A DNA stretch of 64,000 bases from Patescibacteria group bacterium (lineage in GTDB: Bacteria; Patescibacteriota; WWE3; JAMCXX01; JBBTUG01): NCBI GenBank assembly GCA_038063895.1, contig JBBTUG010000012.1, positions 78,165 to 142,164 on the forward strand, given 5' to 3'. The notes below the pieces were generated by a model. It saw nothing but the letters and a program-made list of their open reading frames with translations, did no database searches and had not been told where the DNA came from. Of this stretch, positions 1 through 50,086 are shown in pieces. A program made the position numbers and the translations under genes. How positions within the stretch are numbered: position 1 is the stretch's first letter; every line of letters starts with the position of its first letter.

Positions 1-699
1 ACTCGGATATAGCTCTATTATCTTTATCCCGTTCTTCTTTGCAAGAAGTGTTTTTCTCTTAAATAGTCGGTCGTATCTTTTTAATACTCCTTTTAGACCA
101 ACGAACTCTACCCAGTACTTCCCTTTAACTACAAAGTCGGCTGAAAATTTCCTTTGATTGGGATAATAAACATCCTTGAGGTGTTGAATATTATTTCTCG
201 TGAGAAAATCATCAATTATCTTTTCGCTTAGTGAGTTACAGATATGACCGTCTTTAGCCAACCACCTTTTCGCGAAAAGAACTGGATTCGGTTTAAACCC
301 GGAAGCTAAAATAGCTTTATTCCAGCTCCCAAAAACTCTTCTGAACGGCTGCCAATGGTTATAAAATTCACGTTTTGTGGGAATACGTCCAACTTTCTTC
401 CGAAAGGCTTTTATCTCGTTGATAAGTTGGTTCCTTGTGTATTTAATTTTAAATTTATACGGGGCGTTTCTCCCGCCCCTGCGACACGCATCCTTAAACT
501 GTTCTTCGGTTAGACTTTTGCGAAGTTTTATGATCCCGCGTTGCATTAAATAAAGGTGCTGTCTTCCGGTAAGTTTTATACCCTTTGTATAAACGAAGGC
601 AGTACCTAACCCTATCCCAAGCATCATAGCAACATCGCGATGGGATTTTCCAGCTCTGCGCAAAATACGTGCTTTTCTCTTAGTACTTGGTTTTAGCAC
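1..699 (-). CDS. Partial CDS running off the window edge: HTH + HEAR (homing-endonuclease-associated repeat) + C-terminal PD-(D/E)xK-like nuclease domain. Start probably the GTG at 699.
   Basis: Manual minus-strand translation gives ...TKREFYNHWQPFRRVFGSWNKAILASGFKPN (HEAR-type FGSWNxAL motif) followed by ...KFSADFVVKGKYWVEFVGLKGVLKRYDRLFKRKTLLAKKNGIKIIELYPS (D...E.VG...K nuclease-like). The open frame continues to position 1. It is not in the ORF track because there is no stop inside the window. Confidence 0.55.
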   Translation of the reverse strand, partial: MLKPSTKRKARILRRAGKSHRDVAMMLGIGLGTAFVYTKGIKLTGRQHLYLMQRGIIKLRKSLTEEQFKDACRRGGRNAPYKFKIKYTRNQLINEIKAFRKKVGRIPTKREFYNHWQPFRRVFGSWNKAILASGFKPNPVLFAKRWLAKDGHICNSLSEKIIDDFLTRNNIQHLKDVYYPNQRKFSADFVVKGKYWVEFVGLKGVLKRYDRLFKRKTLLAKKNGIKIIELYPS

Positions 700-3136: not shown

Positions 3137-4134
3137 AATACTCGGATCGGGTTTACGGGCAATTCAACATTACCGAACCGGTGATTTTAGAACTGATTAA
3201 TTGCCCGGCCATTCAAAGATTGAAAAAGATCGATCAGGCCGGCTACAAACCGCTTTGGGCAAAGCCGGAAACCAGGGTCAATGGCACAGAAGCCAGCCGT
3301 TTCGCCCATTCCGTAGGTGTTTTTATTCTTCTCAACAAATATCAGGCTCCCTTAGAAGAGCAAATAGCCGGCTTAATCCACGATGTCTCTCATTCGGCAT
3401 TTTCCCACTGTATTGACTATGTTTTGGATTCCGGTTCGGAAAAAGAACACACCCACCAGGACAGGCTCTTTCCCAGTTTTGTCCGTAAATCGGGGATACC
3501 GAAAATACTCGAAAAATACGGGTTCGCTCTGGATTATATTTTAGATGACGGAAATTTTCCGTTAAAGGAAAAAGAGTTGCCGGATCTCTGTGCCGACCGG
3601 ATTGATTATTCGCTGAGAGAAGCCGTTATTTATAATGAGCTGGGTGAAAAAGACCGTAATTATCTTCTAGATTCATTAACCGTAAAAGATAACTACTGGG
3701 TATTCAGCAGTTTTGAGAGCGGAAAAAAATACGCAGAGCTGTTCTTCCAATTAAATACAATCTATTTCTCCGGCCTTCCATCGGCAGTAATGTTTCGGGC
3801 GGTTGGCGATTGCCTGAAATACGCCTTAAAAGTAGGTTACCTTTCGGAAAACGACCTCTACACTACCGATGAAAAGGTTCTGGGGAAAATTAGAAATAAG
3901 GTGGATTCGGACGGGAAATTGAGTGTACTTTGGGACCGGATGAACGGTGTCATCAAAGCCCACAATGACCCAAGCGATTATGAATCAACAGTTTTTTGTA
4001 AATCCAGAATAGTCGATCCTTTATTCCTTAATGGCACAAAAGTGCAAAGGTTATCGGAAACTAAGCCGGAGTGGAAAAAGGTCGTCGAGCGGGAATCGAA
4101 ACCAAAACAATATTTTTTGAAATTTGAAAGGTAA
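3133..4134 (+). CDS. HD-superfamily phosphohydrolase (COG1078 / dNTP triphosphohydrolase-like)
   Basis: RFAHSVGV...LIHDVSHSAFSH...CADRIDYSLRE matches the H..HD..H..D metal-binding pattern of dGTPase-like HD proteins. Confidence 0.75.
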   Translation: MKYSDRVYGQFNITEPVILELINCPAIQRLKKIDQAGYKPLWAKPETRVNGTEASRFAHSVGVFILLNKYQAPLEEQIAGLIHDVSHSAFSHCIDYVLDSGSEKEHTHQDRLFPSFVRKSGIPKILEKYGFALDYILDDGNFPLKEKELPDLCADRIDYSLREAVIYNELGEKDRNYLLDSLTVKDNYWVFSSFESGKKYAELFFQLNTIYFSGLPSAVMFRAVGDCLKYALKVGYLSENDLYTTDEKVLGKIRNKVDSDGKLSVLWDRMNGVIKAHNDPSDYESTVFCKSRIVDPLFLNGTKVQRLSETKPEWKKVVERESKPKQYFLKFER

Positions 4135-23491: not shown

Positions 23492-24211
23492 TTGGACAAT
23501 GCACTAGCTATGATTCTTGAACAGGAGTTACATCCGATACAAATGAATATTTTAAGGACGCTGCTTTTTATCCCGGCCGCCCGTTTTACCCAGCTCAACA
23601 ATCAAAAAATAGGCACTGACCAGTTTAACTTTCATCTAAAAAGACTGTTGGCTTTAAGCCTCGTCGAGAAACAAGGGGCAAGATATTATTCACTGACCAT
23701 CAAGGGAAAGGAGGCCGCCAACCAAATGGACACCGACACGGCCACCTTCGAGAAGCAGGCTAAAGTTGCTGTGTTGATCGTCGGCGTCCGTCGACAGCGT
23801 AATCGCCAAGAATTCTTAGTGCAAAAAAGATTAAAACAGCCCTATTACGGTTTCCATGGCTTTATCTCCGGCAAAGTTCGGTGGGGAGAAATATTGAAAG
23901 AAGCGGCGGCTAGAGAATTTAAAGAAGAAGCGGGGCTTTCGACAAGGCTGGAACTTAAAGGAATTAAGCATAAAATCGATTACGATCAAAGCGGTCTGCT
24001 CCTTGAGGATAAGTATTTTTTTGTCTTTCGGGCCAATAATCCCAGCGGGAAGTTGATCAATAAATTTGAGGGCGGCGAGAATTCGTGGCTGACAAGAGAA
24101 GACATACTTCGACTACCACAACTATTTGACGGAGTCGACGAGTCTCTAAAAATTATTTTGGGACGAAGACTATTATTTAGTGAAGACAAATATAACGTCA
24201 GCCACTATTAG
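23492..24211 (+). CDS. Winged-helix (MarR-like) DNA-binding domain fused to a C-terminal NUDIX hydrolase domain; encoded antisense between rpsJ and rplC
   Basis: Nudix box GFISGKVRWGEILKEAAAREFKEEAGL. N-terminal region IQMNILRTLLFIPAARFTQL...FHLKRLLALSLVEKQG...YSLTIKG is wHTH-like. Confidence 0.75.
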   Translation: MDNALAMILEQELHPIQMNILRTLLFIPAARFTQLNNQKIGTDQFNFHLKRLLALSLVEKQGARYYSLTIKGKEAANQMDTDTATFEKQAKVAVLIVGVRRQRNRQEFLVQKRLKQPYYGFHGFISGKVRWGEILKEAAAREFKEEAGLSTRLELKGIKHKIDYDQSGLLLEDKYFFVFRANNPSGKLINKFEGGENSWLTREDILRLPQLFDGVDESLKIILGRRLLFSEDKYNVSHY

Positions 24212-25901: not shown

Positions 25902-28031
25902 TTAGCGACCGGCTTCGGCACCGATAATTTTTTGTCCGACGTTATCGGGAACCTCCTGGTAGTGGCTGGGTTCCATGGCAAAAACCCCACGGCCCTGGGT
26001 TAAGGAACGGACGCTGGTCGCGTAACCGAACATCTCGGATAACGGAACCAGCGCATCAATAGCCCTGACGTTACCGCGGGATTCGGTTCCCGAAATAGTC
26101 GCCCGGCGAGAAGAAAGATCCCCGATAACTTCACCCATATATTCTTCCGGGACAGTCACCTCTAACTTCATAATCGGTTCGAGAAAAACGGGCGAAGCGC
26201 GGCGGGCCCCTTCGCGAGTGGCTTCTGAAGCGGCAATTTTAAAGGCCATTTCGGAGGAATCAACATCGTGGTAACTGCCGTCAAAAACCGTAATTTTCAG
26301 GTCGGTCAGAGGGTAGCCGGACAAAACTCCCTTGTCGAGGGCTTCCCGGACACCCTTTTCCACGGCCGGAACGAACTCAATGGGAATTGATCCACCTTTA
26401 ATTTTATTTTCAAATTCGAATCCTTGCCCAGGTGGGAGAGGCTCAAGACGGAGAAAGACGTGCCCGTACTGACCGCGCCCGCCAGACTGGTGGACGTACT
26501 TCCCCTCCTGCTCGACCAGTTTTCGGATCGTTTCCCGGTAGGCGACTTGCGGGCGGCCGACGTTAGCCTCAACTTTAAACTCCCGGCGCATCCGGTCAAC
26601 AATAATTTCCAAGTGCAACTCCCCCATTCCGGAGATAATAACCTGGCCGGTTTCCTGATCGGTGCGCACCTTAAAGGTCGGGTCTTCTTCGGCAAATTTC
26701 CGGATAGCCAAGCCCATTTTTTCCTGATCGACCTTGGTTTTTGGCTCAATCGCAACGGAAACAACCGGTTCGGGAAACTTAATGGATTCCAGAATAATAG
26801 GCTTACCGTCATCCGAGAGAGTATCACCCGTGAAAGTATCTTTGAGTCCGACGGCGGCGCCAATTTCTCCGGCGACCAAATCGGCTACCTCTTCACGGTC
26901 GTTAGCATGCATCAACAGTAATCGGCTAAGACGCTCCTTCAGGTCACGGCGGGTATTTTGAACATACGTCCCGGCCGTCAATTTACCGGAATAAACGCGG
27001 ATGTAGGTCAGACGGCCGACGTAAGGATCGGTCTGAACTTTAAAAGCTAGAGCCGCCAACGGGGCGTCGGGATCGGCGATGCGGGATTCCGCTTCACCGG
27101 TTTTAGGACTCGTACCGGTTACCGGGGGCAGATCCATCGGCGACGGCAGGTATTCAACAGCCGCATCCAAAATTGAACGGACCAGACCCTTCCGGGCATC
27201 GCCGCCCAGAACCGGGAAAAGTTTTCCGGAGGTAGTTCCCGCACGAAGAGCTCTCCGCAAAGTCATTGTACTGGCCGGTTCTCCGGCCAGATATTTTTCC
27301 ATCAACTCCTGATCAAAATCAGCCGCCTTCTCCAGCAGCAGGTCGCGGTACTTCTCGACCTGTTCTTTCATCTCAACCGGAATTTCCTCGACCTTCACTT
27401 CGGAACCGTTTTCATTACCGTAAACAAAGGACTTAAGCAGAACTAAATCAACGTAGCCCCTAAGTTCCGACTCGCGTCCGATCGGTAACTGGATGGCGAC
27501 AGCATTGGCGCCCAGCTTCTCACGGATTGAATTAAGGCTCATCACAAAATCGCCGCCGATGAGGTTCAGTTTATTAACGTAGCAAATCCGGGGAACGTGA
27601 TATTTATCGGCTTGGCGCCAGACGGTTTCGGATTGCGGTTCCACGCCACACTTGCCGTCAAAAACCACAACCGCCCCGTCCAAAACCCGCAGTGACCTCT
27701 CGACCTCAGCGGTAAAGTCGACGTGACCGGGCGTATCAATGATATTAATCCGGTGTGGGCCTAAGTCAGGCTCATCGACCGGTTGCCACAAACAAGTAGT
27801 TGCCGCCGAGGTAATAGTAATACCCCGTTCCCGTTCCTGGGCCATCCAGTCCATTTGGGTTGTCCCTTCATCAATATTCCCGATCTTGTGAATGATTCCC
27901 GTGAGGTAAAGAACGGTTTCGGTAGTGGTTGTTTTCCCGGCGTCAATGTGAGCGATAATCCCAATGTTACGGATTTTTGACAGCGGGATTAATTTTTCTT
28001 TTTCAACATCAAGCTTCGTCGGCATATTCAA
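25902..28031 (-). CDS. fusA: Elongation factor G (start at TTG 28031 or ATG 28025)
   Basis: [19 protein letters not shown]...DTPGHVDFT... 709 aa. Confidence 0.95.
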
Positions 28032-28043
28032 TATGAAGTAAAA

Positions 28044-28109
28044 CCACTAATACCCTTCACTAATTAACCGCTAATCGATTCGTGATCTATTCGTGGAGAA
28101 GATTCGTGG
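28044..28109. promoter_or_regulatory. 66-bp perfectly symmetric element with three CCAC(T/G)AAT octamers per arm around a central AATCGATT, copy B, in the rpsG-fusA intergenic region
   Basis: ccactaat-N5-tcactaat-N4-cgctaat-cg-attcgtga-N3-attcgtgg-N5-attcgtgg. Arm positions are mirror-symmetric about 28076/28077. About 90% identical to the copy at 32773..32838 in inverted orientation. Confidence 0.7.
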
Positions 28110-28122
28110 CGTTTGTTCCTTT

Positions 28123-28596
28123 TTAAGCTCCCCAACGGAAATGGGCAAAGGCTTTATTGGCTTCGGCCATCCGGTGCATTTCTTCTTTCTTTTTCATCGC
28201 CGCGCCGGTACCCTTCAAAATATCCTGCAATTCGGCCGCTAATTTTTCGGCCATCGGGATTCCTTTGCGCATCTGGGCGGAACGGACAATCCATCGCAAA
28301 GCCAGAGACTCCGCCCGTTCGTAGCGGACCGGGGAGGGCACCTGGTATGTGGCCCCGCCGACCCGGCGGGCTTTAACTTCCTGGGCGGGCGTCACGTTAT
28401 CCACCGCCGTTTTCAACATATTCTTAGCCTCAGTCTTATCCGTACTTAAAGAATTCAACGCCGAATAGACGATCCGCACCGCCGTCGATTTCTTCCCCTG
28501 AATCATCACGCGGTTAATCAGCTTGCTAACCAGCGGCGATTTGTAGAGGGACTCTAATTTTATTGGAACTCTTTTGACTTTTCCGCTTCTTGGCAT
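28123..28596 (-). CDS. rpsG: 30S ribosomal protein S7
   Basis: MPRSGKVKRVPIKL...QGKKSTAVRIVY. Confidence 0.9.
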   Translation of the reverse strand: MPRSGKVKRVPIKLESLYKSPLVSKLINRVMIQGKKSTAVRIVYSALNSLSTDKTEAKNMLKTAVDNVTPAQEVKARRVGGATYQVPSPVRYERAESLALRWIVRSAQMRKGIPMAEKLAAELQDILKGTGAAMKKKEEMHRMAEANKAFAHFRWGA

Positions 28597-28600
28597 AATT

Positions 28601-29032
28601 TTAACTTCCTTCCGTCTTTTTTAACTTACTTAATTTCGTACCGTATTTCGATCGGCCTCGGCGCCTTTTTTCAACACCACCCGTATCGTAGTGTCCGCGG
28701 ATAATCGTATATTTCACTCCCGGCAAATCCTGAATCCGTCCTCCCCGGACCATTACGACTGAGTGCTCCTGAAGATTGTGGCCCTCGCCGGGAATGTACG
28801 CAGTGACTTCGCGGCCGTTAGAGAGACGGACCCTAGCCACTTTCCGCAAAGCCGAATTAGGCTTCTTCGGAGTCATTGTTTTCACCTGAATCGCTACCCC
28901 GCGTTTAAAGGGCGAAGAAACTTTCCGGAAGCGGCGCTTTAAACTGGAGTAAACTTCCGTTAAGGCTTTTGTTTTTGAACGCTTTCTTTTCTTAGTTCTT
29001 TTATTATTGATCAGCTGTTGAATCGTTGGCAT
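28601..29032 (-). CDS. rpsL: 30S ribosomal protein S12 (with a Lys/Arg-rich N-terminal insertion)
   Basis: [60 protein letters not shown]. Confidence 0.9.
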
Positions 29033-29040
29033 AGTCCCTG

Positions 29041-32000
29041 TTAAAGAGTCCGGTCAATCCGTGCTCGCTCGCCGGTCGGAATCAGACGGCCGATAATGAC
29101 GTTCTCTTTTAAACCCCACAACCGGTCGACTTTTCCGGACAGGGCGGCTTCCGTTAAGACCCGAGTCGTTTCCTGGAAAGAAGCGGCGGCCAAGAAGCTT
29201 TCCGTCGCCAAAGAGGCTTTTGTAATTCCCAGCAGGATAATCTTGGCGGTAGCCGGTCGGCGGCCTTCAGCCAGTAAACGCTCATTTTCATCTTCAAAGA
29301 AGTAGCGGCTGACAATCTCGCCGGGAAGGAATTTACCGTCGCCGGGATTATCAATCCGGACCCGGGAGAACATTTGCCGGACGATAACTTCCACGTGCTT
29401 GTCGTTTAAGTTAACCCCTTGGGTCGAGTAAACTCTCTGGATTTCCGAAACGATATACTTTTTCGTGCCCTCGATCCCGACTACCTGAACCAGACGGGGG
29501 AGATTTAAATGCCCTTCGGTCAAAGCCTGACCCGGCCGGACCACGTCACCCTCGGAAATCAGTATCTCTGCGGTGGGATCAATATCGTAAGTAAATTCCT
29601 GGCTGCGGGAATTATCGTCTGCGGAGGTCAAAACAATCCTCCGGCTTTCTCCTTCGGTCACGATCTGAACCCGCCCCGTAACATCTGCCATCACCGCCAA
29701 AGTACTTGGATTACGGGCCTCAAAAACCTCTTCCACGCGCGGCAGACCTTGGGTAATATCCTTCCCGACAATTCCACCGGTGTGATAAGTCCGGAGAGTC
29801 AACTGGGTTCCCGGTTCTCCGATTGACTGGGCGGCTGTCACCCCAATCGCCGTTCCCACCAGCACCAGTTTCTTCGTCGCCAGATCCCGACCGTAACAGG
29901 AGGCACAGACTCCGTAATGAGCTTCACAAGTCATTGGGGAACGGGCAAAGATCCGCTCAATTCCGGCCGCGCCGATTTTCCCGGCAATCTCCTCGTCAAC
30001 CAAGGTTCCCGCCGGGAAAAGAACTTTCTTCCCGCTGGCGTCTTTCACTTCTTCCGCCAACACCCGACCGGCAACCCGCTCCAAAAAGTTCGACAGTACG
30101 GTCTCTTCACCCTTGATGATTTCTAAGCTCTGGGCGGTTCCGCAGTCTTCGATCCGCACCAGCACTTCCTGGGCCACATCAACCAACCGGCGGGTTAAGT
30201 AACCGGCGTCAGCGGTTTTAAGGGCGGTATCAACTAATCCCTTGCGGGCTCCGCGCGCACCGGCAAAGTATTCGAAACCGCTAAGGCCCTCGACGTAGTT
30301 GGACCGGATCGGCAGCTCGACGAGGTGTCCGGTCGGGTCGACAATTAAACCCCTCATTCCCGCAATCTGCTTTACCATGTCTCGGGTTCCCCGGGCACCG
30401 GAACTCACCATCATCTTGATCGGGTTGTCTTTTTCCAGATTGTCCCAAGTTAACTTATCAATCGTATTGGTCGCGTCAGTCCACACCTGTTCGGAAAGGC
30501 GCAGCTTTTCCCGTTTGGTGATCAGCCCCCGACGGAAGTTCCGGTCAATCTCCGCGGCCTTCATTGTCGACTGCTCAATAATCCCATATTTTTGGGGGGG
30601 AATCTTCCCATCCGTAATGGCCATCGACATTCCCGAAACCGTCGAAAAACGGAAACCCATATTTTTAAAGTCATCAATAAGACGGACGGTCCGGACGCGG
30701 CCTTCGTGAAGCAGCGACCGCTCAACTAGTTTCTTCAGGGCCCCGTTTTCTTTGTTAATCTCGTCGTTAAAGAATTCAAAAGCACTCGGCAAAATACTGT
30801 TGAAAATAATCCGGCCTAAAGTCGTTTCGATCAGCTCTCCGTTAATCCGGACCTTAACCGGCTCCCGGAGGTATACCCGTCCGATCTCGTAAGAGTAAAG
30901 CGCGTCTTCAATATCGGCGAAAATTTTCCCTGTGGCGCTACTTGGACGGGCGGTCGTTAAGTAATGCAAACCCACCAGCATTTCCCGGTTCGGAATGGTA
31001 ATCGGCACCCCACTGCTCGGGTAAAGAAGATTTTTGCTGGAAAGCATAATGTCGTTGGCCTCGCGGCGGGCGTTATCCGACAGCGGAATGTGAACAGCCA
31101 TCTGGTCTCCGTCAAAGTCGGCGTTGTAACCGCCGCAAACACACGGGTGGAGCTGAATGGCATAGCCATCAATCAGCTTCGGGTAGAAAGCCTGGATTCC
31201 CAGACGGTGGAGAGTCGGAGCGCGGTTTAAGAGAACCGGATGATCTTTAACAATGTTTTCCAAAATATCCCAAACTTCATCACTGCCGGAGTCCAAAACA
31301 TAGCGGGCGCTTTTTAAATTGGGCGCCAAACCGCGGACCATCACTTCCCGTAAGACGAAGGGCTTGAAAAGTTCCAAAGCCATATCTTTCGGTAAGCCAC
31401 ACTCTTCCAATTTAAGATGCGGCCCGACGACGATCACGCTCCGGCCGGAGTAATCAACCCTCTTTCCCAATAAATTACGGCGGAACCGGCCCTGCTTTCC
31501 TTTCAACAGATCGGAGAGGGAGCGCAATTTTTGTTTCCCGCGCATCGGCCGGACTTGGGTGTGCTGCTTGCTGCTGTCGATCAGGGCGTCAACCGCTTCC
31601 TGCAACATCCTTTTTTCATTGCGGATAATAATTTCCGGGGCGCCCAATTCAAGCAGTTTCTTTAAACGGTTGTTGCGGTTAATCACCCGGCGGTAGAGGT
31701 CGTTGTGGTCGGAGGTCGCAAACCGTCCGCCCTCCAGTTGCACCATCGGCCGCAAATCCGGCGGGATTACGGCGATATGACGGGTAATCATCCATTCCGC
31801 TTTAACTTCCGCCAACCGCATTCCCTCGACTAAACGAAGTCTTTTCGCGAGTTTAATCCGCCGCGGTCCGATTGCCTTCGCCAATTTCCGGTGCAGTGAT
31901 TTTGCAATCTCATCCAAATCAACCGCCTTTAATACCTGGTCCACAGCTTCCGCTCCCATCGCCACTTTCGTAAAACGGTCGAGGTAGTCACTCAGCTCGT

Positions 32001-32754
32001 TGTATTTCGCTTCCGGAATAACCGTGAGGTAATCGACACTCTTCAGATAAGTTTCCCATTCTTTAAAGCGGTCTTCGATCTTACCGAGCTCATTCGCGAG
32101 AGCTTCCCGTAGCTGGCTGATTTCTCGCCGAGCCGTCATCGTCAGTGATCGGCTTTTATTTTCCATTGCGTTTTTGTCGGCGGAACTTTTTTCCAAAGTC
32201 GCGATGGCTTTTTCAACTTCTCTCTCCCGTTCCTTAATCTTCCGTTCGGTTTCCTTTTCCGCTTTTTCCTTACTTTCAAGTTCTTTTTTGGCTAAGAGAC
32301 TTACCGCCTCGGCCCGGTGGACGGGATTGAAATTGACGACGAGGTAAGAAGCAAAGTAGATAACCGTTTCCAACTCCCGGGGAGAGACATCCAAAAGAAT
32401 GCCGGCCGGAGAAGGAATCCCGCGGAAATACCAGACATGGGCGCAGGGGGTTGACAGGGTAATATGCCCCATCCGCTCACGCCGCACCCGGGAATAGGTA
32501 ACCTCGACACCACACTTATCGCAGATAACGCCTTTATAACGGATCCGCTTGTATTTTCCGCAGTAGCATTCGAAGTCTTTGGTCGGGCCGAAAATCCGCT
32601 CATCAAATAAACCGTCTTTTTCGGCTTTAAAGGTCCGGTAATTTATTGTTTCCGGCTTGACCACTTCACCGTGCGACCACGAAAGAACGTCCTCAGGCGA
32701 GGCAACGCTGATCCGCAGAGCATCAAATTCTTTTAGACTTTCTAGAGTTTCCAT
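29041..32754 (-). CDS. rpoC: DNA-directed RNA polymerase subunit beta'
   Basis: 1237 aa; zinc-binding CxxC near the N-terminus, NADFDGD catalytic motif ([13 protein letters not shown]). Confidence 0.95.
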
Positions 32755-32772
32755 AGTAGTTTGGAACTAACG

Positions 32773-32838
32773 CCACGAATATTCTCCACAAATAGACCAC
32801 GAATCGATTAGTGGTTAATTCGTGAAGGAAATTAGTGA
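32773..32838. promoter_or_regulatory. 66-bp symmetric six-octamer element, copy A, immediately upstream of rpoC (between the PHP gene and rpoC)
   Basis: ccacgaat-N5-ccacaaat-N4-ccacgaat-cg-attagtgg-N3-attcgtga-N5-attagtga, symmetric about 32805/32806. The reverse complement aligns with copy B over about 85 nt including flanks. Confidence 0.7.
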
Positions 32839-32850
32839 CATTCCTTCCTT

Positions 32851-33921
32851 TTACTCCCTTACCGAGCTCCATTCTAAACTCGGTTTAGCAGCCTTTATCA
32901 TCTCCGCCGCCATTCCCACCGTCCGAGACGCCAACGCACTCCCGCTAAAAGCCATTAAATCCGCCTCGTTGTGTATATCACCTCCGCCGCTGGCAAGCAA
33001 GCCGTATTTTCCCGTTATTCCGGCTAAACTCTTCTGATCCGCCTTAATTTCATCCTTGCCCTCAGTCACGTTGACTCCGTAAACTACCTCAATTCCATCA
33101 AGTCGGTGTTCCCGAGCCAGCCGCTCAACCCACGCTTCGGTCAGTACTTTTTTACTAAATGTCCAGTGCGCTAAAATTGCCACTCCGCCAGAGCGACGAA
33201 TTAAAGATACCGCGTCATCCAACTGCAAAGAGTCGTTATAAGGGACATAGATCCCCTTAATTATTGCGCTCTCACCGAGCAACAAACGGAAGAGCTGTTC
33301 CTTCGCTGAGGCTTTGGTCAGCAGTTCCGCATCAGCACCGCTGCTTATCTCCTGATCGACCAGCTCTGCCAATCGGTTGCGATTAACCGGATTAATTAAC
33401 AATGCCTCGGCAATGTGCGGACGTCCGATCGAAGGTCCTTCTGATACCGCTAAGACGTCCTCAACCGTGATCACAAACCCAGTCCGCTCAAGGTTCCCAA
33501 TCATCAACCGGGCCCGGGCTAACCGTTCCTCCTGGCGCTCCCGACAATGATCCAGTAAACGTTTATTTCGCGGGTCAACAAACAGACCGACGATATGAAA
33601 GAGCGGCACCTCCTCGACCAACTCCCGGACGTGACTGACTGAAAGCTCAATCCCCACAATGAATTTGGTCGGATGCGCCTTTAACCCATTCAGTTCCTGA
33701 AGAGCCGATTCATCCGGCAGCGCATCGTGATCGGTGAAGGCCGCTACCCCCACATTATATTTTTGGCAGGCATTAAGAATCCCGCCATAACTTAAAGTGC
33801 CGTCGGAAGTCCTGGTGTGACAGTGCAGACTTTCCAACTCTTTATTGATTCGACTCATTCCCGGCCTCAGCATTTTTTTCGGCTGCCGGAGGTGCTGTCG
33901 GCTCACTGATTTCCGGCTCAA
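32851..33921 (-). CDS. PHP-domain (polymerase/histidinol-phosphatase-like) metal-dependent phosphoesterase. The listed start overlaps the rpoB 3' end; the likely true start is the Met at 33858.
   Basis: HCHTRTSDGTLS...AFTDHDAL is the PHP His-rich motif. The ORF-track start uses an upstream alternative start codon. Confidence 0.65.
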   Translation of the reverse strand: MSRKSVSRQHLRQPKKMLRPGMSRINKELESLHCHTRTSDGTLSYGGILNACQKYNVGVAAFTDHDALPDESALQELNGLKAHPTKFIVGIELSVSHVRELVEEVPLFHIVGLFVDPRNKRLLDHCRERQEERLARARLMIGNLERTGFVITVEDVLAVSEGPSIGRPHIAEALLINPVNRNRLAELVDQEISSGADAELLTKASAKEQLFRLLLGESAIIKGIYVPYNDSLQLDDAVSLIRRSGGVAILAHWTFSKKVLTEAWVERLAREHRLDGIEVVYGVNVTEGKDEIKADQKSLAGITGKYGLLASGGGDIHNEADLMAFSGSALASRTVGMAAEMIKAAKPSLEWSSVRE

Positions 33922-43173: not shown

Positions 43174-43354
43174 AACCAAAATATAACACTAAATATCCCC
43201 CCTTTCCATCCCTGCACGATACGTTTCGAAGATTGAGGACAAACCGAAACGAGCGCTGAGTTCGGCCAAATGCCCGTCCCCAGAATCAGATAGTATGTGC
43301 TAAACACACATTACGCGTCGGTAGCTTTTTTAGTACTTCCAATCTTTTTATAAG

Positions 43355-44506
43355 TTAGACCTGGTCGGGTTCTTCTGGTTCTCCCGATTGTAATAATTTG
43401 ATCTGTGGCAAAGCCTGGCCGGCGATACCTGTCATACTACCGTAGATACCCGAAACTCCTAATAGCAGCCTGTCAACCTGTATCTCTCTGAGTTTCCAGG
43501 ATCTTTCAGCCGACGCACGTTCTTTAGATATTTGTCCCTTCATCTCTAAATATGTTTCCGCCATTCTTTCAACTTGTTGTGCAAATTCATGACTCGTCAC
43601 GAAGTCGTACATTTCCTCGGCCGTACTTTGTTTTAGCGTAACTGTTGCTTTTTCTTTTGCCACATCGTAAAGATTTTTACGCAAAAGCGCCCCTAAGGGT
43701 TCTATAAGCTTTGGGCTAACAATCCAAACGCCGCCTTTTTCTCCTATTTCTTTTTTAAAATCAATCGGCAGGGCTTCGCTCACAATCACCCCTATATGGG
43801 CCTTATCTCGTTGTACATCTCCCTTTAACTTACTGATCCAGCTATCAGACCACGCTTTAGTTCTTTTACTTTCCCAGATTATTTTCCCGCATATTGTACC
43901 CCGGGCTGTTTTTATGGTATGCCGTATATCCCCACCCAATTCGCCTTTCTTAATCTCTTCTACCCCATCAGTGGGAAATAATCGCCTAAGCGTTTCTTCA
44001 AGATCAAGCTCTTGCACCTCACCCTGCAACTGCTGCGATCCTTGGTTTGCTTTTCGATTTGCGTCTTCGAGGGCTTTCGCTAGATCTGCCTTTTGCTTTT
44101 CGTATTCGGCAAACTTGAGTTTATCTTTCTCTATTTGTTCCTCCGTCGCTTTTAATCGTATCTTTTCGCGCTCTTCGTCCATTTGCCGTTGTTTTTCTAG
44201 CTCAAAGCTACGCCGGGCCTCATCTAATTCCCGTTTTTCCTTTCGTATTGCAAGTTCAGCATCCTCTGCCTTCTGCGCCCGGCCCTTTAAATTATTAATT
44301 TGTTCATCCTTGTCTTTCAGATCTTTAGAAAGTTGTTCTTTTGCTTTACTTTCTGCCGTTTCCGCCGCTTGTTTTCTCGCATCTTCGAGTTCCTGGAGGT
44401 GACGAGACTGAATAGACACAAGAATACGCTCTTCAGTTTGATGTGCTAGTGCTTCCGATACTTCAATCTCAAAACCGCACTTTTTGCACTTAATCGTTGT
44501 GTTCAT
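43355..44506 (-). CDS. DUF2130-family protein: N-terminal zinc ribbon, long coiled coil, C-terminal conserved domain
   Basis: MNTTIKCKKCGFEIEVSEALAHQ... followed by a Glu/Lys-rich coiled coil; 4-nt overlap with the upstream hsdS. Confidence 0.65.
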   Translation of the reverse strand: MNTTIKCKKCGFEIEVSEALAHQTEERILVSIQSRHLQELEDARKQAAETAESKAKEQLSKDLKDKDEQINNLKGRAQKAEDAELAIRKEKRELDEARRSFELEKQRQMDEEREKIRLKATEEQIEKDKLKFAEYEKQKADLAKALEDANRKANQGSQQLQGEVQELDLEETLRRLFPTDGVEEIKKGELGGDIRHTIKTARGTICGKIIWESKRTKAWSDSWISKLKGDVQRDKAHIGVIVSEALPIDFKKEIGEKGGVWIVSPKLIEPLGALLRKNLYDVAKEKATVTLKQSTAEEMYDFVTSHEFAQQVERMAETYLEMKGQISKERASAERSWKLREIQVDRLLLGVSGIYGSMTGIAGQALPQIKLLQSGEPEEPDQV

Positions 44507-45942
44507 AATTTTATCCTTAATTTTACTAGTTCCGTGTTAATCCACTCTTTCGCTTCCTTTTCGTTCTTCTCAATCGCCGTTTCCACGCCGTGCTTGGCGA
44601 TTTCAAGCAGAGCCTTTGACGAGTTCCCATCATTAAATGATTCTTCAACAAGTTTCTTGATTTCCTCTTGCTTATCGTTTTTCAAAAGGGGAATTATCGT
44701 TGCTGTGACTTGATCGGGTCGCCAATGATTAATAATCGATCCGCCGGCATCGCGTTCAATTTGTTTTTGGACGATCACGGAATTTAAAACAAGCGTCAGA
44801 TATTCCGGCAATACTTTTCGACTATCTACTATTAATCTCAAAATACCACCAGAAACTATCATTTTTTGCGATTCTTCGTTCAGATAATAGGCTAGGCCGG
44901 GCGTTGCGTCTTTTGAAAGCAATATCTCGCCTTTCTTCGGCTGATGAATTTTTAGTTCGTTGTACAATTCTTCGGATATAAACTGCTGATTGTTGTCGGA
45001 AAGCTCAAATTTAGAAATATTGCTCACGCGGACAAACGGCACGCCATTTTCTTTGTATGCGTCACTTCCTGGTTCAACGCTTTTTTTGATTTTCACTAAA
45101 TTCCCCAATTCATCAAACCCCCCTTTGTATTTTTTTACTGCAGCAATAAGTTCATCATATTTTGGCTGGAAATATTCCGCGTCGGCGCGCTCGGCGTACT
45201 TTACGCCAGAAAGTTTAACGACAAATACTAAGTCGTCTTCAACTTGATAATCCTTTAATCCCAATTCTTCCAAAAGCAGGTTTTCAGCGTTTGAATAATG
45301 TTGAGCTGCTACGATTTTATATTTTCTTGAGCTCTTTATAAGAGAATCAATTTTCTGCTGAAAAGAAATACTAGTAATCGGAATAGTAATATTTTCAACT
45401 TCCCTGCAATTTAGATTTACCTGCTCGGTTTGACGGCTTTGTTGCCAGAGCTGATACCGTCCATATTTTCCTCTTAAAAAAGATTCTAGGTAAGAAGAAA
45501 GGATAGTATCCAAGGGTCTAATCAAGGCTATATTCTGATTTATATTCATCTTTGGATCATCGACGAAAACCCGAGCGGTTCTCCCTACGATTTCATAGGA
45601 AGCACCTATTATAGTAACCAGAACATCCCTCTCTTTTGGTTCAGAGTATTTTCTACTTTCACCCACCGGTAAATTATCAGCGAATTCAAATTTAATCTCC
45701 CCGTCTCTAAGAGAATCGGTCTTTATAAACTTAATATCTGTACCGTCTTGTCTACAAATCCGCCGTTTTGGAGTTGTCCCCGTTAAAACAGGCCGGGATA
45801 CTAATTCCTTTAGTATTTTGGAACGTAAACCAGAATCACTAATGACTTTTTTGATTGACAAATATTCCGGTTGGTAATATTCCGCATCCAGCCGTAAGGA
45901 ACCTTCGAGTTGGGATTTTTGGATAACTGAATAGTTCATCAC
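44503..45942 (-). CDS. hsdS: Restriction-modification specificity subunit (HsdS-like, two target-recognition domains)
   Basis: LEGSLRLDAEYYQPEY at the N-terminus and the repeated conserved coiled region (...ELKIHQPKKGEILLSKDATPGLAYY...). Confidence 0.85.
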   Translation of the reverse strand: MMNYSVIQKSQLEGSLRLDAEYYQPEYLSIKKVISDSGLRSKILKELVSRPVLTGTTPKRRICRQDGTDIKFIKTDSLRDGEIKFEFADNLPVGESRKYSEPKERDVLVTIIGASYEIVGRTARVFVDDPKMNINQNIALIRPLDTILSSYLESFLRGKYGRYQLWQQSRQTEQVNLNCREVENITIPITSISFQQKIDSLIKSSRKYKIVAAQHYSNAENLLLEELGLKDYQVEDDLVFVVKLSGVKYAERADAEYFQPKYDELIAAVKKYKGGFDELGNLVKIKKSVEPGSDAYKENGVPFVRVSNISKFELSDNNQQFISEELYNELKIHQPKKGEILLSKDATPGLAYYLNEESQKMIVSGGILRLIVDSRKVLPEYLTLVLNSVIVQKQIERDAGGSIINHWRPDQVTATIIPLLKNDKQEEIKKLVEESFNDGNSSKALLEIAKHGVETAIEKNEKEAKEWINTELVKLRIKL

Positions 45943-46565
45943 AGGGGTTTGATTTTTGAGTATTTCAAAATTTCTATATAGGAAAGAAAAGCCTTGCCCG
46001 TGTTTGTTATCATAATATTACCTTCTTCATCGTTGGCTATTAAACCAGAGTTGAATAAGAAGCTTAGATAGTCTCCTATGTTGTAGTTTTTATGTATTGG
46101 GTATTGATTTTGTAGCCCTTGAAAAAACCCATTTTGCCCAGTGTTTGTTAAATGAGTGACTCTATTTAAAAACTCTAATAATCTTATCTGACTTCCAAAT
46201 ATAAAGTTGTAGATTCTTTCGAAACCTAAATAGACTTGCGTATTAGCCAGTTCATTCTGGAGTTTCCTTTCGTTATCCCCTAAACTCTTGATTTTTTCTT
46301 CATACTCATCTTTAATTTTGTTTAGGTTGGTATCCACTGATTTATTAAGGTCTTCTTCCTGTAACTCTTTTGTTTTTTTATTTTGTTCTTCGATTTGGTC
46401 CCCAATATCAATCTGCGTATCGCCAGGCCCTTTAATACTTTTAATTCCAGCAATCAGGTTTCTGATACTCGATCTAAAGTAAATTAGTGAGCAGGAAACA
46501 ATGAAGGGCCAGGTAATTGCTTTTGTGTAATCCAATAAAAGTTTCCAATCCATTTCTACCTCCAA
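45939..46565 (-). CDS. Hypothetical protein encoded between the MTase and S genes: N-terminal TM helix, central coiled coil, C-terminal domain of unknown function
   Basis: AITWPFIVSCSLIYF TM segment; translationally coupled (overlaps) on both sides within the R-M operon. Confidence 0.6.
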   Translation of the reverse strand: MEVEMDWKLLLDYTKAITWPFIVSCSLIYFRSSIRNLIAGIKSIKGPGDTQIDIGDQIEEQNKKTKELQEEDLNKSVDTNLNKIKDEYEEKIKSLGDNERKLQNELANTQVYLGFERIYNFIFGSQIRLLEFLNRVTHLTNTGQNGFFQGLQNQYPIHKNYNIGDYLSFLFNSGLIANDEEGNIMITNTGKAFLSYIEILKYSKIKPL

Positions 46566-48517
46566 AAACTAAATTTTTGCTCCTTGGCGAATTTAATAAA
46601 GGCTTCGGCGATTTCGTCTAAGTCGTGGTCAAGAACCTTGCGAAAGTTGGCGTCGTGGACGTGATTTCCGTCTGCGTCTTTCTTGTAAAGATAATCACCG
46701 GAGTTGTCTTTCCCCGGCCTCTTGGAGACAGCCATAAAAATTGGGTAGTCGGGTAGCGGTTCTCCCGTTTCTCCGCCCCATTTCTGCAAAAACAAAACAG
46801 ATGTCTTTGTTCCGGTATGGGGCTTAAAGGTATTGCCATGGAGTCCGACCACTGCCAAAATCCGCGCTTTTTCGAATAGATATTCGCGAATGTATTCCAT
46901 ATTGGTGTTATTTAAGACGCCTTGGGGTAGCACAATGGCTATTCGTCCTCCGGGTCGTACCATATCCAAAGCCCGCTCAATAAATAAAATGTGCCTTTCG
47001 ACTTTATTAACTAACTTTCCCTTCTTTTTTCCAAAATCATATTGGCGAAGTATCCCGGTGTCCTTGATTTCACCGGCGAAAGGGGGGTTAGTCAAAAGTA
47101 AATCAAAATTAAAATTGTGAAACGTTTTTCTATTTTCTTCGTTGTCCGATGAATTAACGCTTTCCAATAACCTTGTTTGGAGCTTGGCTCGTGCATCCAA
47201 AAGATTACCGCTTTCACCTTGCCACTCTCGGGGATCCAGCGAATTAAGTTTAAACATGTGTGACCTCCCGTCGCCGGCAATCAGCATCAAAGCCCGGGAA
47301 ACTTTGGAGATTTCCTCGGCAAAGTCAATTCCCCAGAGATGTTCTTTTGAATACTCTTTAACCGACTCGTCAACCCGGCCTAAGTACTTTTCCTTTATCC
47401 AGTTCATCGTTTGGATAAGAAAACCGCCGGAACCGGCGGCCGGATCGATTATGTATTCACTACTCTTTGGGTTTAGCATTTTAACCGCCATGGCAATAAC
47501 GTGACGGGGTGTGAAATATTGACCCTTCTTACCCTTGGCCACTTCCGGAATCAAATACTCAAAGGCTTCGTCCACGATGGATAAATCGGAACCAAACAAG
47601 CGCGCTTTCTCTAATTCCGCTACAACAATCGACAGGTGTTCAGGGGAAAGGTTAATATTTTCCTGCTCCAAAAACGTCCCCGGCCATTTTTTAATTGCTT
47701 GTTTAAAGAGATTGTTAATAACGGAGTAGGTTTTGGCTTGGTCTTTGTACTTGCGGAAAAATACTTCTTTGTCTGAACGATTCAGCCGGGCTTCATTTTC
47801 GTCGAAAAGTTTCGCGTAAACGAGCTTAAAGACCTCGGTAAAAACATCCACGCCGGCGTTAGCCAGAACAAGCTCCTCCATTTGTTCGATGATTTCTTTG
47901 AGATTGGCGCTTTTATCGGTATATTCAAAAAGAGTTTTTTTAGACTCTAAAAGATCGTCGATCGTTTTTCCGGCAGAGGGCAAGTCCGGCAGAGTATCAT
48001 TGAATTCTTTGGGGTAGGGACGGTACAAAATAATTCTTTTTACCCCGTTGGACCAAAGGCCAATCTCCGCCCCTTCCGCCGAAAGGTAGCTTTTAAGCTG
48101 CTCAATGCCTCTACTCTCGGTTGGGCTTTTAACTTCAATAATAATGTAGGGAGTAATTTTGTCCGGTTTATAGACAACCACGTCCGCGGCCTTCGCGTGG
48201 ATTTCTCGGCCAAAGTGGACGCTTTTTTCGGTGTCGATTCGGTCAAGCGGATACTGGTAGTAAGTGTTGAGTTTATGGATCCATAACTGGCGGACAATTT
48301 CTTCCGGTTTCCCGGTTTGTTTCCGGTCGTCAAAAACGAATTTTTGACCGCCCGATTTTAAATCTTTCACATAAAAACGGTGGGGCTCGTCTTCAGTTAT
48401 GTGTAAAACTTCCGCGATTTCTACCTCGCTAAACTCCCTTAATCCGTAGACTGTATCACTATCTCCAAAAACTTTGTCTATGATTTCACTTGATTTGTTG
48501 GGCTTAATTGTTGGCAT
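46556..48517 (-). CDS. Restriction-modification fusion protein: N-terminal PD-(D/E)xK nuclease-like domain + N6-adenine DNA methyltransferase (HsdM-type). Start taken at the Met at 48517.
   Basis: Nuclease-like D...EVK (DVVVYKPDKITPYIIIEVKSP). MTase motif I IIDPAAGSGGFL and motif IV LLTNPPFAGE. Confidence 0.8.
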   Translation of the reverse strand: MPTIKPNKSSEIIDKVFGDSDTVYGLREFSEVEIAEVLHITEDEPHRFYVKDLKSGGQKFVFDDRKQTGKPEEIVRQLWIHKLNTYYQYPLDRIDTEKSVHFGREIHAKAADVVVYKPDKITPYIIIEVKSPTESRGIEQLKSYLSAEGAEIGLWSNGVKRIILYRPYPKEFNDTLPDLPSAGKTIDDLLESKKTLFEYTDKSANLKEIIEQMEELVLANAGVDVFTEVFKLVYAKLFDENEARLNRSDKEVFFRKYKDQAKTYSVINNLFKQAIKKWPGTFLEQENINLSPEHLSIVVAELEKARLFGSDLSIVDEAFEYLIPEVAKGKKGQYFTPRHVIAMAVKMLNPKSSEYIIDPAAGSGGFLIQTMNWIKEKYLGRVDESVKEYSKEHLWGIDFAEEISKVSRALMLIAGDGRSHMFKLNSLDPREWQGESGNLLDARAKLQTRLLESVNSSDNEENRKTFHNFNFDLLLTNPPFAGEIKDTGILRQYDFGKKKGKLVNKVERHILFIERALDMVRPGGRIAIVLPQGVLNNTNMEYIREYLFEKARILAVVGLHGNTFKPHTGTKTSVLFLQKWGGETGEPLPDYPIFMAVSKRPGKDNSGDYLYKKDADGNHVHDANFRKVLDHDLDEIAEAFIKFAKEQKFSFWR

Positions 48518-48524
48518 AAAACAT

Positions 48525-49163
48525 CTAGCTAACCTGACTCCATCGGTTATTCTTAAATAAAGAAACAACCTTGCCGATTAGTTTCATTTCCTCGGTTATG
48601 GGAATTATTGGATAGTTCGGGTTCTCCGGTTTTAAGTAAACGTATGGTGGCGTGTCCGTGGAAACAAAACGTTTAATGGTGGTTTCTCCATTTATATCCG
48701 CCAAGACCACGTTCCCCGAAACAAATTCCTTGTCCGCTTTTACTAGAACCAAATCTTCATCTTCTATCCCCGCGTTAATCATGGAATCTCCATGAACTTT
48801 TAGAACAAAAACTTCGTCGTCGAGCTGTTCTAAGTCGTTAGAGACCTTCCGCCAGTTTCCGGATATTTCTATTGCTTCCGCTGGTTTACCTGCCGTTGTG
48901 GTTCCAAAAATCGGAACTAGAGATGGACGGGAAAGCTCTTTATACCCTAATGGTAAGACGGTAACACCTCTGGCGGTGGCTTCGTTCCTCTTTATTAATT
49001 TATGGTTCTCCAATTTGGACAGTAGATCAAGGATAGATTGATTTGAGGAAACATTGAGTTTATCTTTCATTTCTTCGAAAGTTGGGGGATAACCGGTAAC
49101 ATCAATAAAGTTGTATATCACCTCAAGAAGCTCTCTTTGTCTTTTTGTGACAGCCTTTTTCAT
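48525..49163 (-). CDS. lexA: LexA repressor (S24 peptidase with N-terminal wHTH)
   Basis: N-terminal LexA DNA-binding domain (KRQRELLEVIYNFIDVTGYPPTFEEM...), Ser-Lys dyad region (VHGDSMINAGIEDEDLVLVK...TIKRF). Confidence 0.85.
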   Translation of the reverse strand: MKKAVTKRQRELLEVIYNFIDVTGYPPTFEEMKDKLNVSSNQSILDLLSKLENHKLIKRNEATARGVTVLPLGYKELSRPSLVPIFGTTTAGKPAEAIEISGNWRKVSNDLEQLDDEVFVLKVHGDSMINAGIEDEDLVLVKADKEFVSGNVVLADINGETTIKRFVSTDTPPYVYLKPENPNYPIIPITEEMKLIGKVVSLFKNNRWSQVS

Positions 49164-49411
49164 ACACTAGTATGTTACCCGACTGTTTAGTCAGTTGTCA
49201 ATAGGTGATGTTCACGAAGAAGGGATGTGGCGATTAACATAAAGATAAAACCTAAACTAAAAAAAGCAGAAAGCTGGCGGCGGGTAAGGTTTTATAAGGT
49301 GCGAAGTCACGTTTACCGTGACGAAGATGTCTTAGATAATTCCAAGACGATTGTCCCACCGCCAACTTTCTGCCTTTCAATAATTAGTACCCTATCTTAC
49401 CATTTTAACAC

Positions 49412-49472
49412 AAATGTCCTATAATGTCAACTATAAGGGTATATTAGGAGTGGGGTTAAACTGTGATAAAAT
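49412..49472 (+). promoter_or_regulatory. Candidate promoter(s) for tRNA-Cys
   Basis: TTACCA-17 nt-TATAAT at about 49398-49426, and an extended -10 TGtGATAAAAT about 15 nt upstream of the tRNA 5' end. Confidence 0.4.
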
Positions 49473-49485
49473 GGAAATTGAAAGG

Positions 49486-49560
49486 GGCGCGGTGGCGAAG
49501 TGGAAACGCTGGAGTCTGCAAAACTTCGATGCGAGGGTTCGATTCCCTCCCGCGCCTCCA
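49486..49560 (+). tRNA. tRNA-Cys(GCA) with encoded CCA
   Basis: Acceptor GGCGCGG/CCGCGCC, U8, D-loop with GG, anticodon stem ggagt/acttc, loop cU-GCA-aa, T-arm gaggg-TTCGATT-ccctc, discriminator U, CCA. Confidence 0.9.
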
Positions 49561-49570
49561 TCGGAAAAAC

Positions 49571-50086
49571 TTACCTCTTAACTTTAAAAAACCTTTTCTG
49601 GTTTTTCGATGGCGACTCGGGGCCGGGGGAAGCTTGTTTCTTTATTTGATTAGTCACTGCCTCAGTCACTTCTTCAATTCCCTTGGCGACTTTTTCTCTG
49701 CCGGCGGTAAACGCTTTGCTGATCTCCCCAGTCACCGGTTCGGAAAATTCCGTAACCTCCTCAACCACCGAACCGACAGTTGCTTCAATTTTCTCTTTCA
49801 GCGGAGCGAGCTCTTCCTGCACCCGTTCAAAAACCGGGGCCACGGTTTCTTTAAGCTCGGTCACTAAGGGTTCTAAGTCTTCTTTGATTTGGCCATATGC
49901 GTCGTCAAACTGTTCTTTCACTTCACCGTACTTTTCTTTTAGTTCCTTACCCTTAATTTTAAGTCTTTTCCGAGTCCGCTCGCCGTTGTCCGGGGCGAAC
50001 AAAACCCCGAGTACCGCTCCAAGCGACGCTCCTAAAATAATTCCGAAAAGAAACTTGCCGCCTTTCTTACAATTATTTTGGCACAT
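49571..50086 (-). CDS. YtxH-like (DUF948) membrane-anchored protein
   Basis: N-terminal FLFGIILGASLGAVLGVLFAPDNGERTRKRL followed by a Glu/Lys-rich helical region. Confidence 0.6.
   Translation of the reverse strand: MCQNNCKKGGKFLFGIILGASLGAVLGVLFAPDNGERTRKRLKIKGKELKEKYGEVKEQFDDAYGQIKEDLEPLVTELKETVAPVFERVQEELAPLKEKIEATVGSVVEEVTEFSEPVTGEISKAFTAGREKVAKGIEEVTEAVTNQIKKQASPGPESPSKNQKRFFKVKR

Follow-up and report, generated by a model that had tools for sequence, protein, structure and literature searches.

Miniature inverted-repeat transposable elements (MITEs) and other dispersed palindromes of bacterial genomes, such as Correia/NEMIS, ERIC, RUP and the REP/REPIN doublets, are short non-coding sequences with inverted arms. 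They are present in several copies per genome, lie in either orientation in intergenic or intercistronic spacers, where they are co-transcribed, and are missing at the orthologous sites of relatives; both solo arms and inverted doublets occur. All of these properties are shared by an ~86-bp element that we analyse here in a 64,000-nt stretch of DNA from a Patescibacteria group bacterium (assembly GCA_038063895.1, contig JBBTUG010000012.1, positions 78,165 to 142,164), to which we refer as the window. Two copies, A and B, lie there upstream of rpoC and of fusA, respectively. A preliminary description of this DNA proposed that they are operators and gave a MITE-like palindromic repeat as its first alternative; it is this alternative that is favoured by the evidence, namely empty orthologous sites in relatives and a third copy in the same genome. 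In our opinion, the elements are probably copies of a small non-coding palindromic repeat family of the copy-and-paste (MITE-like) kind, specific to this Patescibacteria lineage.

The element nonetheless departs from MITE and REP-type repeats in several ways. Neither a target-site duplication nor a partner transposase was identified for it, its arms are not continuous inverted repeats or hairpins but sets of three short boxes with unconserved spacers, and the box sequence recurs across several phyla and phages, whereas REP and MITE sequences are species-specific. In RAYT-mobilised REP/REPIN repeats the unit is a short hairpin with a conserved 5' tetranucleotide, and the RAYT gene is flanked by REPs; an arm of the present element is a direct triplet instead, and no Y1 transposase was found among the annotated proteins next to arrays of such boxes. 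Another comparison is offered by the transposon ends of Mu (L1-3/R1-3) and Tn7 (TnsB sites), which have multiple subterminal transposase-binding sites of ~20 bp each. As in these ends, three direct units, here putative binding units, stand on either side and are inverted between the two sides, and the arms enclose a segment of variable length, which ranges from 2 nt up to a whole gene in phage contigs. Unlike in Mu and Tn7, the boxes are 7-8 bp long and follow each other at a period of 10-13 bp, no DDE transposase lies nearby, and the 'cargo' in phage contigs consists of ordinary phage genes.

Both 66-bp elements reported in the preliminary description are present (Table 1), and their reported identity of about 90% in inverted orientation agrees with our alignment, in which copy A matches the reverse complement of copy B at 58 of 66 positions (88%). 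The homology reaches beyond this core, to ~86-90 nt (76/90), and the extension consists of GGAAC(T/A)AACG at one end, which is mirrored less clearly at the other end. The core is made of six CAC[G/T]AAT boxes with the centre AATCGATT, and the box periods are mirror-symmetric (13 and 11 bp, then 11 and 13 bp) around the CG within this centre. On the opposite strand, the left-arm boxes of copy A read as three ATTNGTGG boxes. The arms are not equivalent, since one has CACGAAT-type and the other CACTAAT-type boxes. The earlier octamer, three per arm, fits 10 of the 12 boxes, with CCACAAAT (copy A) and CCGCTAAT (copy B) as the exceptions. However, a near-perfect palindrome, symmetric to the base, overstates the case: self-complementarity amounts to 48/66 positions in copy A and 44/66 in copy B. 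The symmetry holds for the boxes (36/42 and 34/42 positions in A and B) but not for the spacers, with only 12/24 and 10/24 of the remaining positions self-complementary. Boxes that stay complementary while the spacers do not are the mark of selection acting on the boxes themselves and not on a stem. The motif YCACKAAT occurs 15 times in the 64-kb window (6.8 +/- 2.3 expected), ten of these occurrences being within the two elements, and searches with one mismatch allowed per box or with an arm profile confirmed that there is no similar element elsewhere in the window. Stop codons in all three frames, considered as a further feature of the element, do not hold for the window copies.

The evidence for insertion comes from the nearest relatives, which by ribosomal protein S7 in our protein collection are P0002 (83% identical) and P0003 (78%). 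The P0003 contig (L110, GCA_041643115.1) and its Logan twin (L111) have the same gene order as the window, including a gene for a PHP-domain protein between rpoB and rpoC, yet their spacers are only 10 nt (PHP gene-rpoC) and 3 nt (rpsG-fusA) long. The rpsG-fusA spacer of P0002 (L112) is 11 nt, and in more distant relatives (L113, L115) the corresponding junctions measure 19-44 nt. No box arrays were detected in the loci of these relatives or in 604 kb of 80 other str-operon loci, a background that was obtained by an S7 metagenome scan and in which the relatives are only ~50% identical. Given the short spacers and the same synteny, parsimony suggests that both copies are ~86-nt insertions made in the lineage of the window. 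Lack of conservation at orthologous positions had been named in the preliminary description as what would speak against an operator, and the element is indeed missing from both of these positions in the nearest relatives. The contrast between filled and empty sites is one between species, not strains. Five assemblies of the same species from other samples (L001-L005) carry identical copies. All five of these short-read contigs stop at the same point, ~408 nt into fusA, which suggests a strain-variable or repeated segment there. Another genome of the Candidate Phyla Radiation (CPR) has a different palindrome of ~100 nt (TGCACATTTTCGATACTTTCA ... TGAAAGTATCAAAAATGCACA; L117:6683-6843) filling its 161-nt rpsG-fusA spacer, so this junction has been struck independently by another repeat.

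A third copy was found when DNA around the end genes of the window was fetched, which added ~19 kb of the same genome and brought the total inspected to ~83 kb. This copy C (L120:7880-7920) lies in the 80-nt recA/recX spacer, ~29 kb away, and reads ATTAGTG-GTTA-ATTCGTG-GAGAGA-ATTCGTGGC-TTTATTTCC. It is a half element: a single arm whose boxes, 4- and 6-nt spacers and terminal motif are as in A and B, with no recognisable partner arm. All three copies are recovered by a single arm profile with E-values of 1e-9 or better. Spacers of the left and right arms differ from each other, while those of each arm type recur in the other copy, so that A and the reverse complement of B share 19 of 24 non-box positions in addition to 39 of 42 box positions. 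Such shared spacer sequence indicates that the copies descend from one two-armed sequence and are not independently evolved operators. The gene that adjoins recA, ~1.2 kb from copy C, encodes a protein with a helix-turn-helix (HTH), a homing-endonuclease-associated repeat (PF18780) and a nuclease-like C-terminus (window 1-699, minus strand, and L120:9095-9805); no link between this HNH-repeat protein and the repeat could be demonstrated.

The local gene order, all on the minus strand, is rpoB, the PHP-domain gene, rpoC, rpsL, rpsG, fusA, tuf and rpsJ. The 96 nt between the PHP gene and rpoC are taken up by copy A, and the 97 nt between rpsG and fusA by copy B. Copy A is located upstream of rpoC, as had been stated, but it is not directly 3' of rpoB: the PHP gene, coding for a phosphoesterase-like protein and overlapping the end of rpoB, sits in between. 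Since this gene is also found in L110/L111, it must be older than the repeat insertion.

Table 1. Coordinates of the two element copies, their arms and the adjoining genes in the window
Feature	Position	Strand	Remarks
Element copy A, ~86 bp	32763..32848	.	GGAACTAACG + 66-bp core (32773-32838) + CATTCCTTCC
Element copy B, ~86 bp	28034..28119	.	core 28044-28109; inverted relative to copy A
Copy A left arm	32774..32804	+	boxes CACGAAT (32774), CACAAAT (32787), CACGAAT (32798)
Copy A right arm	32807..32837	+	boxes ATTAGTG (32807), ATTCGTG (32818), ATTAGTG (32831)
Copy B arm	28045..28075	+	boxes CACTAAT (28045), CACTAAT (28058), CGCTAAT (28069)
Copy B other arm	28078..28108	+	boxes ATTCGTG (28078, 28089, 28102)
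rpoC	29041..32754	-	1237 aa; Pfam RNA_pol_Rpb1_1-5; start codon 8 nt from the end of copy A
PHP-domain gene, between rpoB and rpoC	32851..33858	-	stop codon (begins 32851) abuts copy A
rpsG (S7)	28123..28596	-	stop codon 3 nt from copy B
fusA (EF-G)	25902..28025	-	start is ATG 28025, set by alignment with relatives

Similar boxes are found far beyond this lineage. When 185,579 species genomes were scanned with a degenerate pattern that comprises the centre and a single arm, 24 loci were returned, 13 of them from Planctomycetota or Verrucomicrobiota and others from Chloroflexota, Acidobacteriota, Bacteroidota and two CPR-like metagenome-assembled genomes (MAGs). In one locus (L026), the interval between rpsJ and rplC contains two full elements, which show the same asymmetry of a G-arm and a T-arm. 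Beyond what the pattern required, nearly all matches have C or A at the free position, a period of 10 bp, a mirror arm and AAC/GTT at the outer ends. A relaxed heptamer search revealed further arrays in the same 8-kb loci. Two ~140-bp elements with a conserved interior are present in a Limisphaerales locus (L020) and two copies of a >115-nt repeat in a planctomycete (L025). In both cases the two copies have sequence in common between the arms or beside them, a property also of MITE families. Altogether, MAGs of several phyla and phage contigs contain hundreds of CAC[G/T][A/G]AT arrays with exactly three boxes (L006-L029, L122-L182 and L198-L263; e.g. L127:2929-10872, L253:2593-10705 and L028:515-4742), which stand alone or form inverted pairs. 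In IMG/VR, exact triples numbered 42 loci for (CACGAAT N3)x3, 19 for (CACTAAT N3)x3 and 67 for (CACGGAT N3)x3, against 8 and 7 loci, mostly simple tandem runs, for shuffled-heptamer controls; triple repeats of any heptamer at a 10-bp period have a background frequency of 2 per 604 kb. Some bona fide phage contigs, whose genes include those for terminase, portal, Mu Gam, Mu F, GemA and Gp27, contain 6-7 arrays within 10-14 kb.

The consensus over 239 unique arrays is tttAAC-CACGRAT-nnA-CACGRAT-nnA-CACGRAT, and the canonical array can be written as (ATTCGTGNNN)x3. Exactly three boxes are present in 245 of the 266 arrays (92%) that have at least three, and the period is 10 bp in 514 of 560 cases (92%). 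Among 25 inverted pairs from other genomes, which have 2-101 nt between the arms, the boxes are 94% complementary and the spacers 54%. Some pairs bracket single phage genes. The genes flanking the arrays are functionally unrelated, and no protein family is shared in their vicinity. Array orientation relative to the flanking genes is near random, without significant bias (147 vs 115, and 15 vs 15), one apparent bias having come partly from open reading frame (ORF) starts called on GTG inside arrays; co-orientation of neighbouring arrays is modest (39 vs 22, p = 0.04). A KOPS- or Chi-like polarity is not supported, since the arrays correlate neither with GC skew nor with the strand of the genes. 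Judging from sequence, these features combined point to a sequence-specific protein-binding unit acting at the DNA level rather than to an RNA structure. Cluster A mycobacteriophages have stoperators, repressor sites dispersed in short intergenic regions, each a single asymmetric 13-bp sequence oriented with transcription. The arrays resemble them in that many copies of one short motif occupy phage intergenic spaces (6-7 arrays each in L127, L203 and L253), but they are triplets, often form palindromic pairs and are common in bacterial chromosomes as well.

Several observations concern individual loci. In L139 (3335-7060) the box is CGCAGAT/ATCTGCG on both arms and in all units, hence the boxes of one element vary in concert, and not every array has a GTG core. 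A Caldilineaceae MAG (L007:3421-3480) has a palindromic array of 9-bp period, CACAAAG-AA three times and then TCTTTGT-GT three times, which may represent a related box family with a different spacing. The Limisphaerales locus with two repeat elements also has two matches to the Acido-Lenti-1 RNA (RF01687; L020:596-640 and 3653-3697).

The wider class can also be compared with MraZ operators. Read on the opposite strand, the class consensus is ATYC-GTGT-nn-ATYC-GTGT-nn-ATYC-GTGG, i.e. three GTG(G/T) boxes 6 nt apart. The MraZ site of M. genitalium is AAAGTGT-N3 three times followed by AAAGTGG (PMC12957436), and that of Mollicutes is (AAAGTGKN3)3 (PMC5282649). The same arrangement, GTGG-gaaatt-GTGG-ggcaaa-GTGG, was confirmed ahead of the mraZ gene of E. 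coli. MraZ is reported to accept altered spacing when its concentration is high and to bind a site that is longer by one nucleotide (PMC5282649, PMC12957436). Common to MraZ operators and the arrays is a direct triplet of GTG-core boxes, and the wider class further shares with the Mycoplasma genitalium site exactly three boxes, the 10-bp period and the order GTGT-GTGT-GTGG; recognition by an oligomer would be the natural reading of such an arrangement. Unlike MraZ operators, the arrays are dispersed in unrelated intergenic regions and phage genomes rather than placed at the mraZ/dcw promoter upstream of mraZ, are often inverted double triplets, have an additional conserved ATY[C/A] 5' of GTG, and in some subtypes have a GCG core. 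The window copies differ further. Their arms read GTGG/GTGG/GTGG and GTGG/GTGA/GTGA in copy A and GTGG/GTGG/GTGA and GCGG/GTGA/GTGG in copy B, so that the fourth box base is G or A, and successive boxes are separated by 7 and 9 nt, giving periods of 11 and 13, whereas 6 nt is the gap in those 514 periods of the wider class. A phmmer search with E. coli MraZ as the query revealed no mraZ gene in the window or any of the fetched loci. The resemblance to MraZ sites is one of architecture only, and the window elements would be no more than candidate members of such a group.

The full element is ~86 bp long, composed of two inverted arms with three ATT[C/A]GTG / CAC[G/T]AAT boxes each and bounded by GGAA...TTCC ends, which are evident in copy A but degenerate in copy B. 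If the elements are mobile repeats, copies would have landed in either orientation in tiny spacers of housekeeping operons: between the PHP gene and rpoC, between rpsG and fusA and, as a half copy, between recA and recX. The boxes, and not a hairpin, would be the conserved functional units, most likely as putative sites for an oligomeric DNA-binding protein acting in trans; candidates for this protein are the mobilising enzyme of the element or a host factor of the MraZ/AbrB type. A number of observations weigh against such mobility. No target-site duplication can be defined, as the flanks are TTT/TTTT at copy A and mismatched at copy B. No cognate transposase or autonomous partner was detected in the window, in L118-L121 or in any array-bearing locus, an all-against-all BLAST of 842 ORFs from 85 array-bearing loci revealed no family present in more than four loci, and for 150 small ORFs of array-rich phage loci Pfam showed neither an enriched family nor a MraZ/AbrB match. 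The number of copies is known only as at least three within ~83 kb of this genome, and the five same-species samples show no strain-level variation in presence or absence. Window periods of 11 and 13 bp deviate from the 10 bp of the large class. Moreover, four of the five CPR elements (those of the window and of L026) reside in translation or transcription operons, a clustering that could hint either at function or at a preference for highly transcribed DNA. Two proteins considered as cognate partners, a sigma-r4/HARE-HTH protein beside the L013 element and the HNH-repeat protein beside recA, proved to be unrelated. BLAST of the elements or their consensus against PLSDB plasmids and GenBank phages gave no match, literature searches with the heptamer strings returned only primers and CRISPR noise, and searches for MITEs in Patescibacteria or heptamer repeats in Planctomycetes turned up nothing relevant.

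The same boxes could instead belong to a lineage-specific operator array, through which an oligomeric protein (MraZ, another AbrB/SpoVT-type protein or a winged-helix protein) regulates rpoC and fusA-tuf, the element having spread because of its ready-made operators. Conservation of boxes but not spacers, the three GTG(G/A) boxes in direct repeat on the opposite strand, the spacing of the related large class, which is that of published MraZ operators, and the clustering of CPR copies in translation and transcription operons are all in line with this possibility. We nevertheless hold it to be unlikely. The sites are empty in the nearest relatives, the third copy resides in the unrelated recA/recX operon, the gaps between GTG boxes are not 6 nt, some array subtypes have a GCG core, and mraZ is lacking from every fetched locus. 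Furthermore, the copies lie within operons at stop and start codons, and a consensus scan found no sigma-70-like promoter in or beside them. Nor do the associated genes form a coherent regulon, given recA/recX and the unrelated flanking genes of other genomes. Thus, of the earlier proposal of phased boxes bound by an oligomeric protein and exerting coordinated control over rpoC and fusA-tuf, the binding is plausible and is strengthened by MraZ-like arrays elsewhere, but the control of these genes is not borne out. It is also conceivable, if doubtful, that the window elements are the CPR branch of an undescribed cross-phylum triple-box class with MraZ-operator architecture, representing a MraZ/AbrB-like binding or decoy network or the ends of a new mobile element. 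Such a class may be defined by exactly three AT[T/C]NGTG(K) boxes at a 10-bp period, solo or in inverted pairs around 2 to ~200 nt or whole genes, and it occurs in MAGs of Planctomycetota, Verrucomicrobiota, Acidobacteriota and Chloroflexota as well as in many phage contigs, some of them Mu-like.

Action at the RNA level, with a hairpin serving as an RNase III-type processing site, mRNA stabiliser or attenuator in the manner of REP/BIME or Correia repeats, seems distinctly improbable. Every copy lies between co-directional genes and is necessarily transcribed, and for copy A the mRNA strand has a folding energy of -34.5 kcal/mol (z = -5.6 relative to shuffled sequence). In contrast, copy B folds at the level of shuffled sequence on both strands (z -0.4, -0.3), and the 33-bp stem of the preliminary description requires G-U pairs and is confined to a single strand of copy A. 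This follows from the arm asymmetry, which yields G-U pairs on one strand and C-A or G-A mismatches on the other; as the copies are inverted relative to transcription, only copy A mRNA folds well, and the G-U pairs of one copy are the C-A mismatches of the other. Spacers are non-complementary, copy C is a half element without a partner arm, array orientation in the wider class is independent of gene direction, there is no terminator-like tail, and Rfam covariance models gave nothing above the gathering threshold in the window and 20 array-bearing loci, with matches at E up to 10 being at chance level. Co-transcription with the operon means that a stable RNA hairpin can arise just ahead of rpoC from copy A, though none can from copy B; we regard any effect of it on rpoC as an incidental side effect. 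With good folding in one copy only, the RNase III idea is weak. Even less credible, to the point that we reject it, is the suggestion that the copies are remnants of an inversion or recombination bracketing rpoC-rpsL-rpsG. They are mutually inverted and flank a 4.6-kb segment, yet relatives without elements share the gene order and orientation, each copy is symmetric by itself, and the third copy is ~29 kb away.

Two further features of the window deserve mention. An ORF for a protein with an N-terminal winged-helix-like region and a NUDIX domain (23492-24211, plus strand) lies on the opposite strand at rpsJ/rplC, inside the S10 operon; at this position L110 has only a 322-nt gap. An island of low GC content (~43300-49600; 0.40-0.44 vs ~0.50) contains large ORFs resembling a type I restriction-modification system, and a LexA-like gene (48525-49163) and tRNA-Cys (49486-49560) are located beside it.

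Our analysis removes, for this locus, an attractive but unsupported shared operator for RNA polymerase and elongation factors. It implies instead that the tightest and most conserved operon junctions of a reduced CPR genome accept insertions of ~86-nt repeats. At the same time, the element is connected through its boxes with a large class of three-box arrays with a 10-bp period in several phyla and their phages, a class that is apparently undescribed. It is this cross-phylum class, together with what looks like a formal identity with MraZ operators, that we find most interesting. If one conserved oligomeric protein does read all of these arrays, this would mean either a wider role for MraZ-type regulators or a new mechanism of mobilisation.

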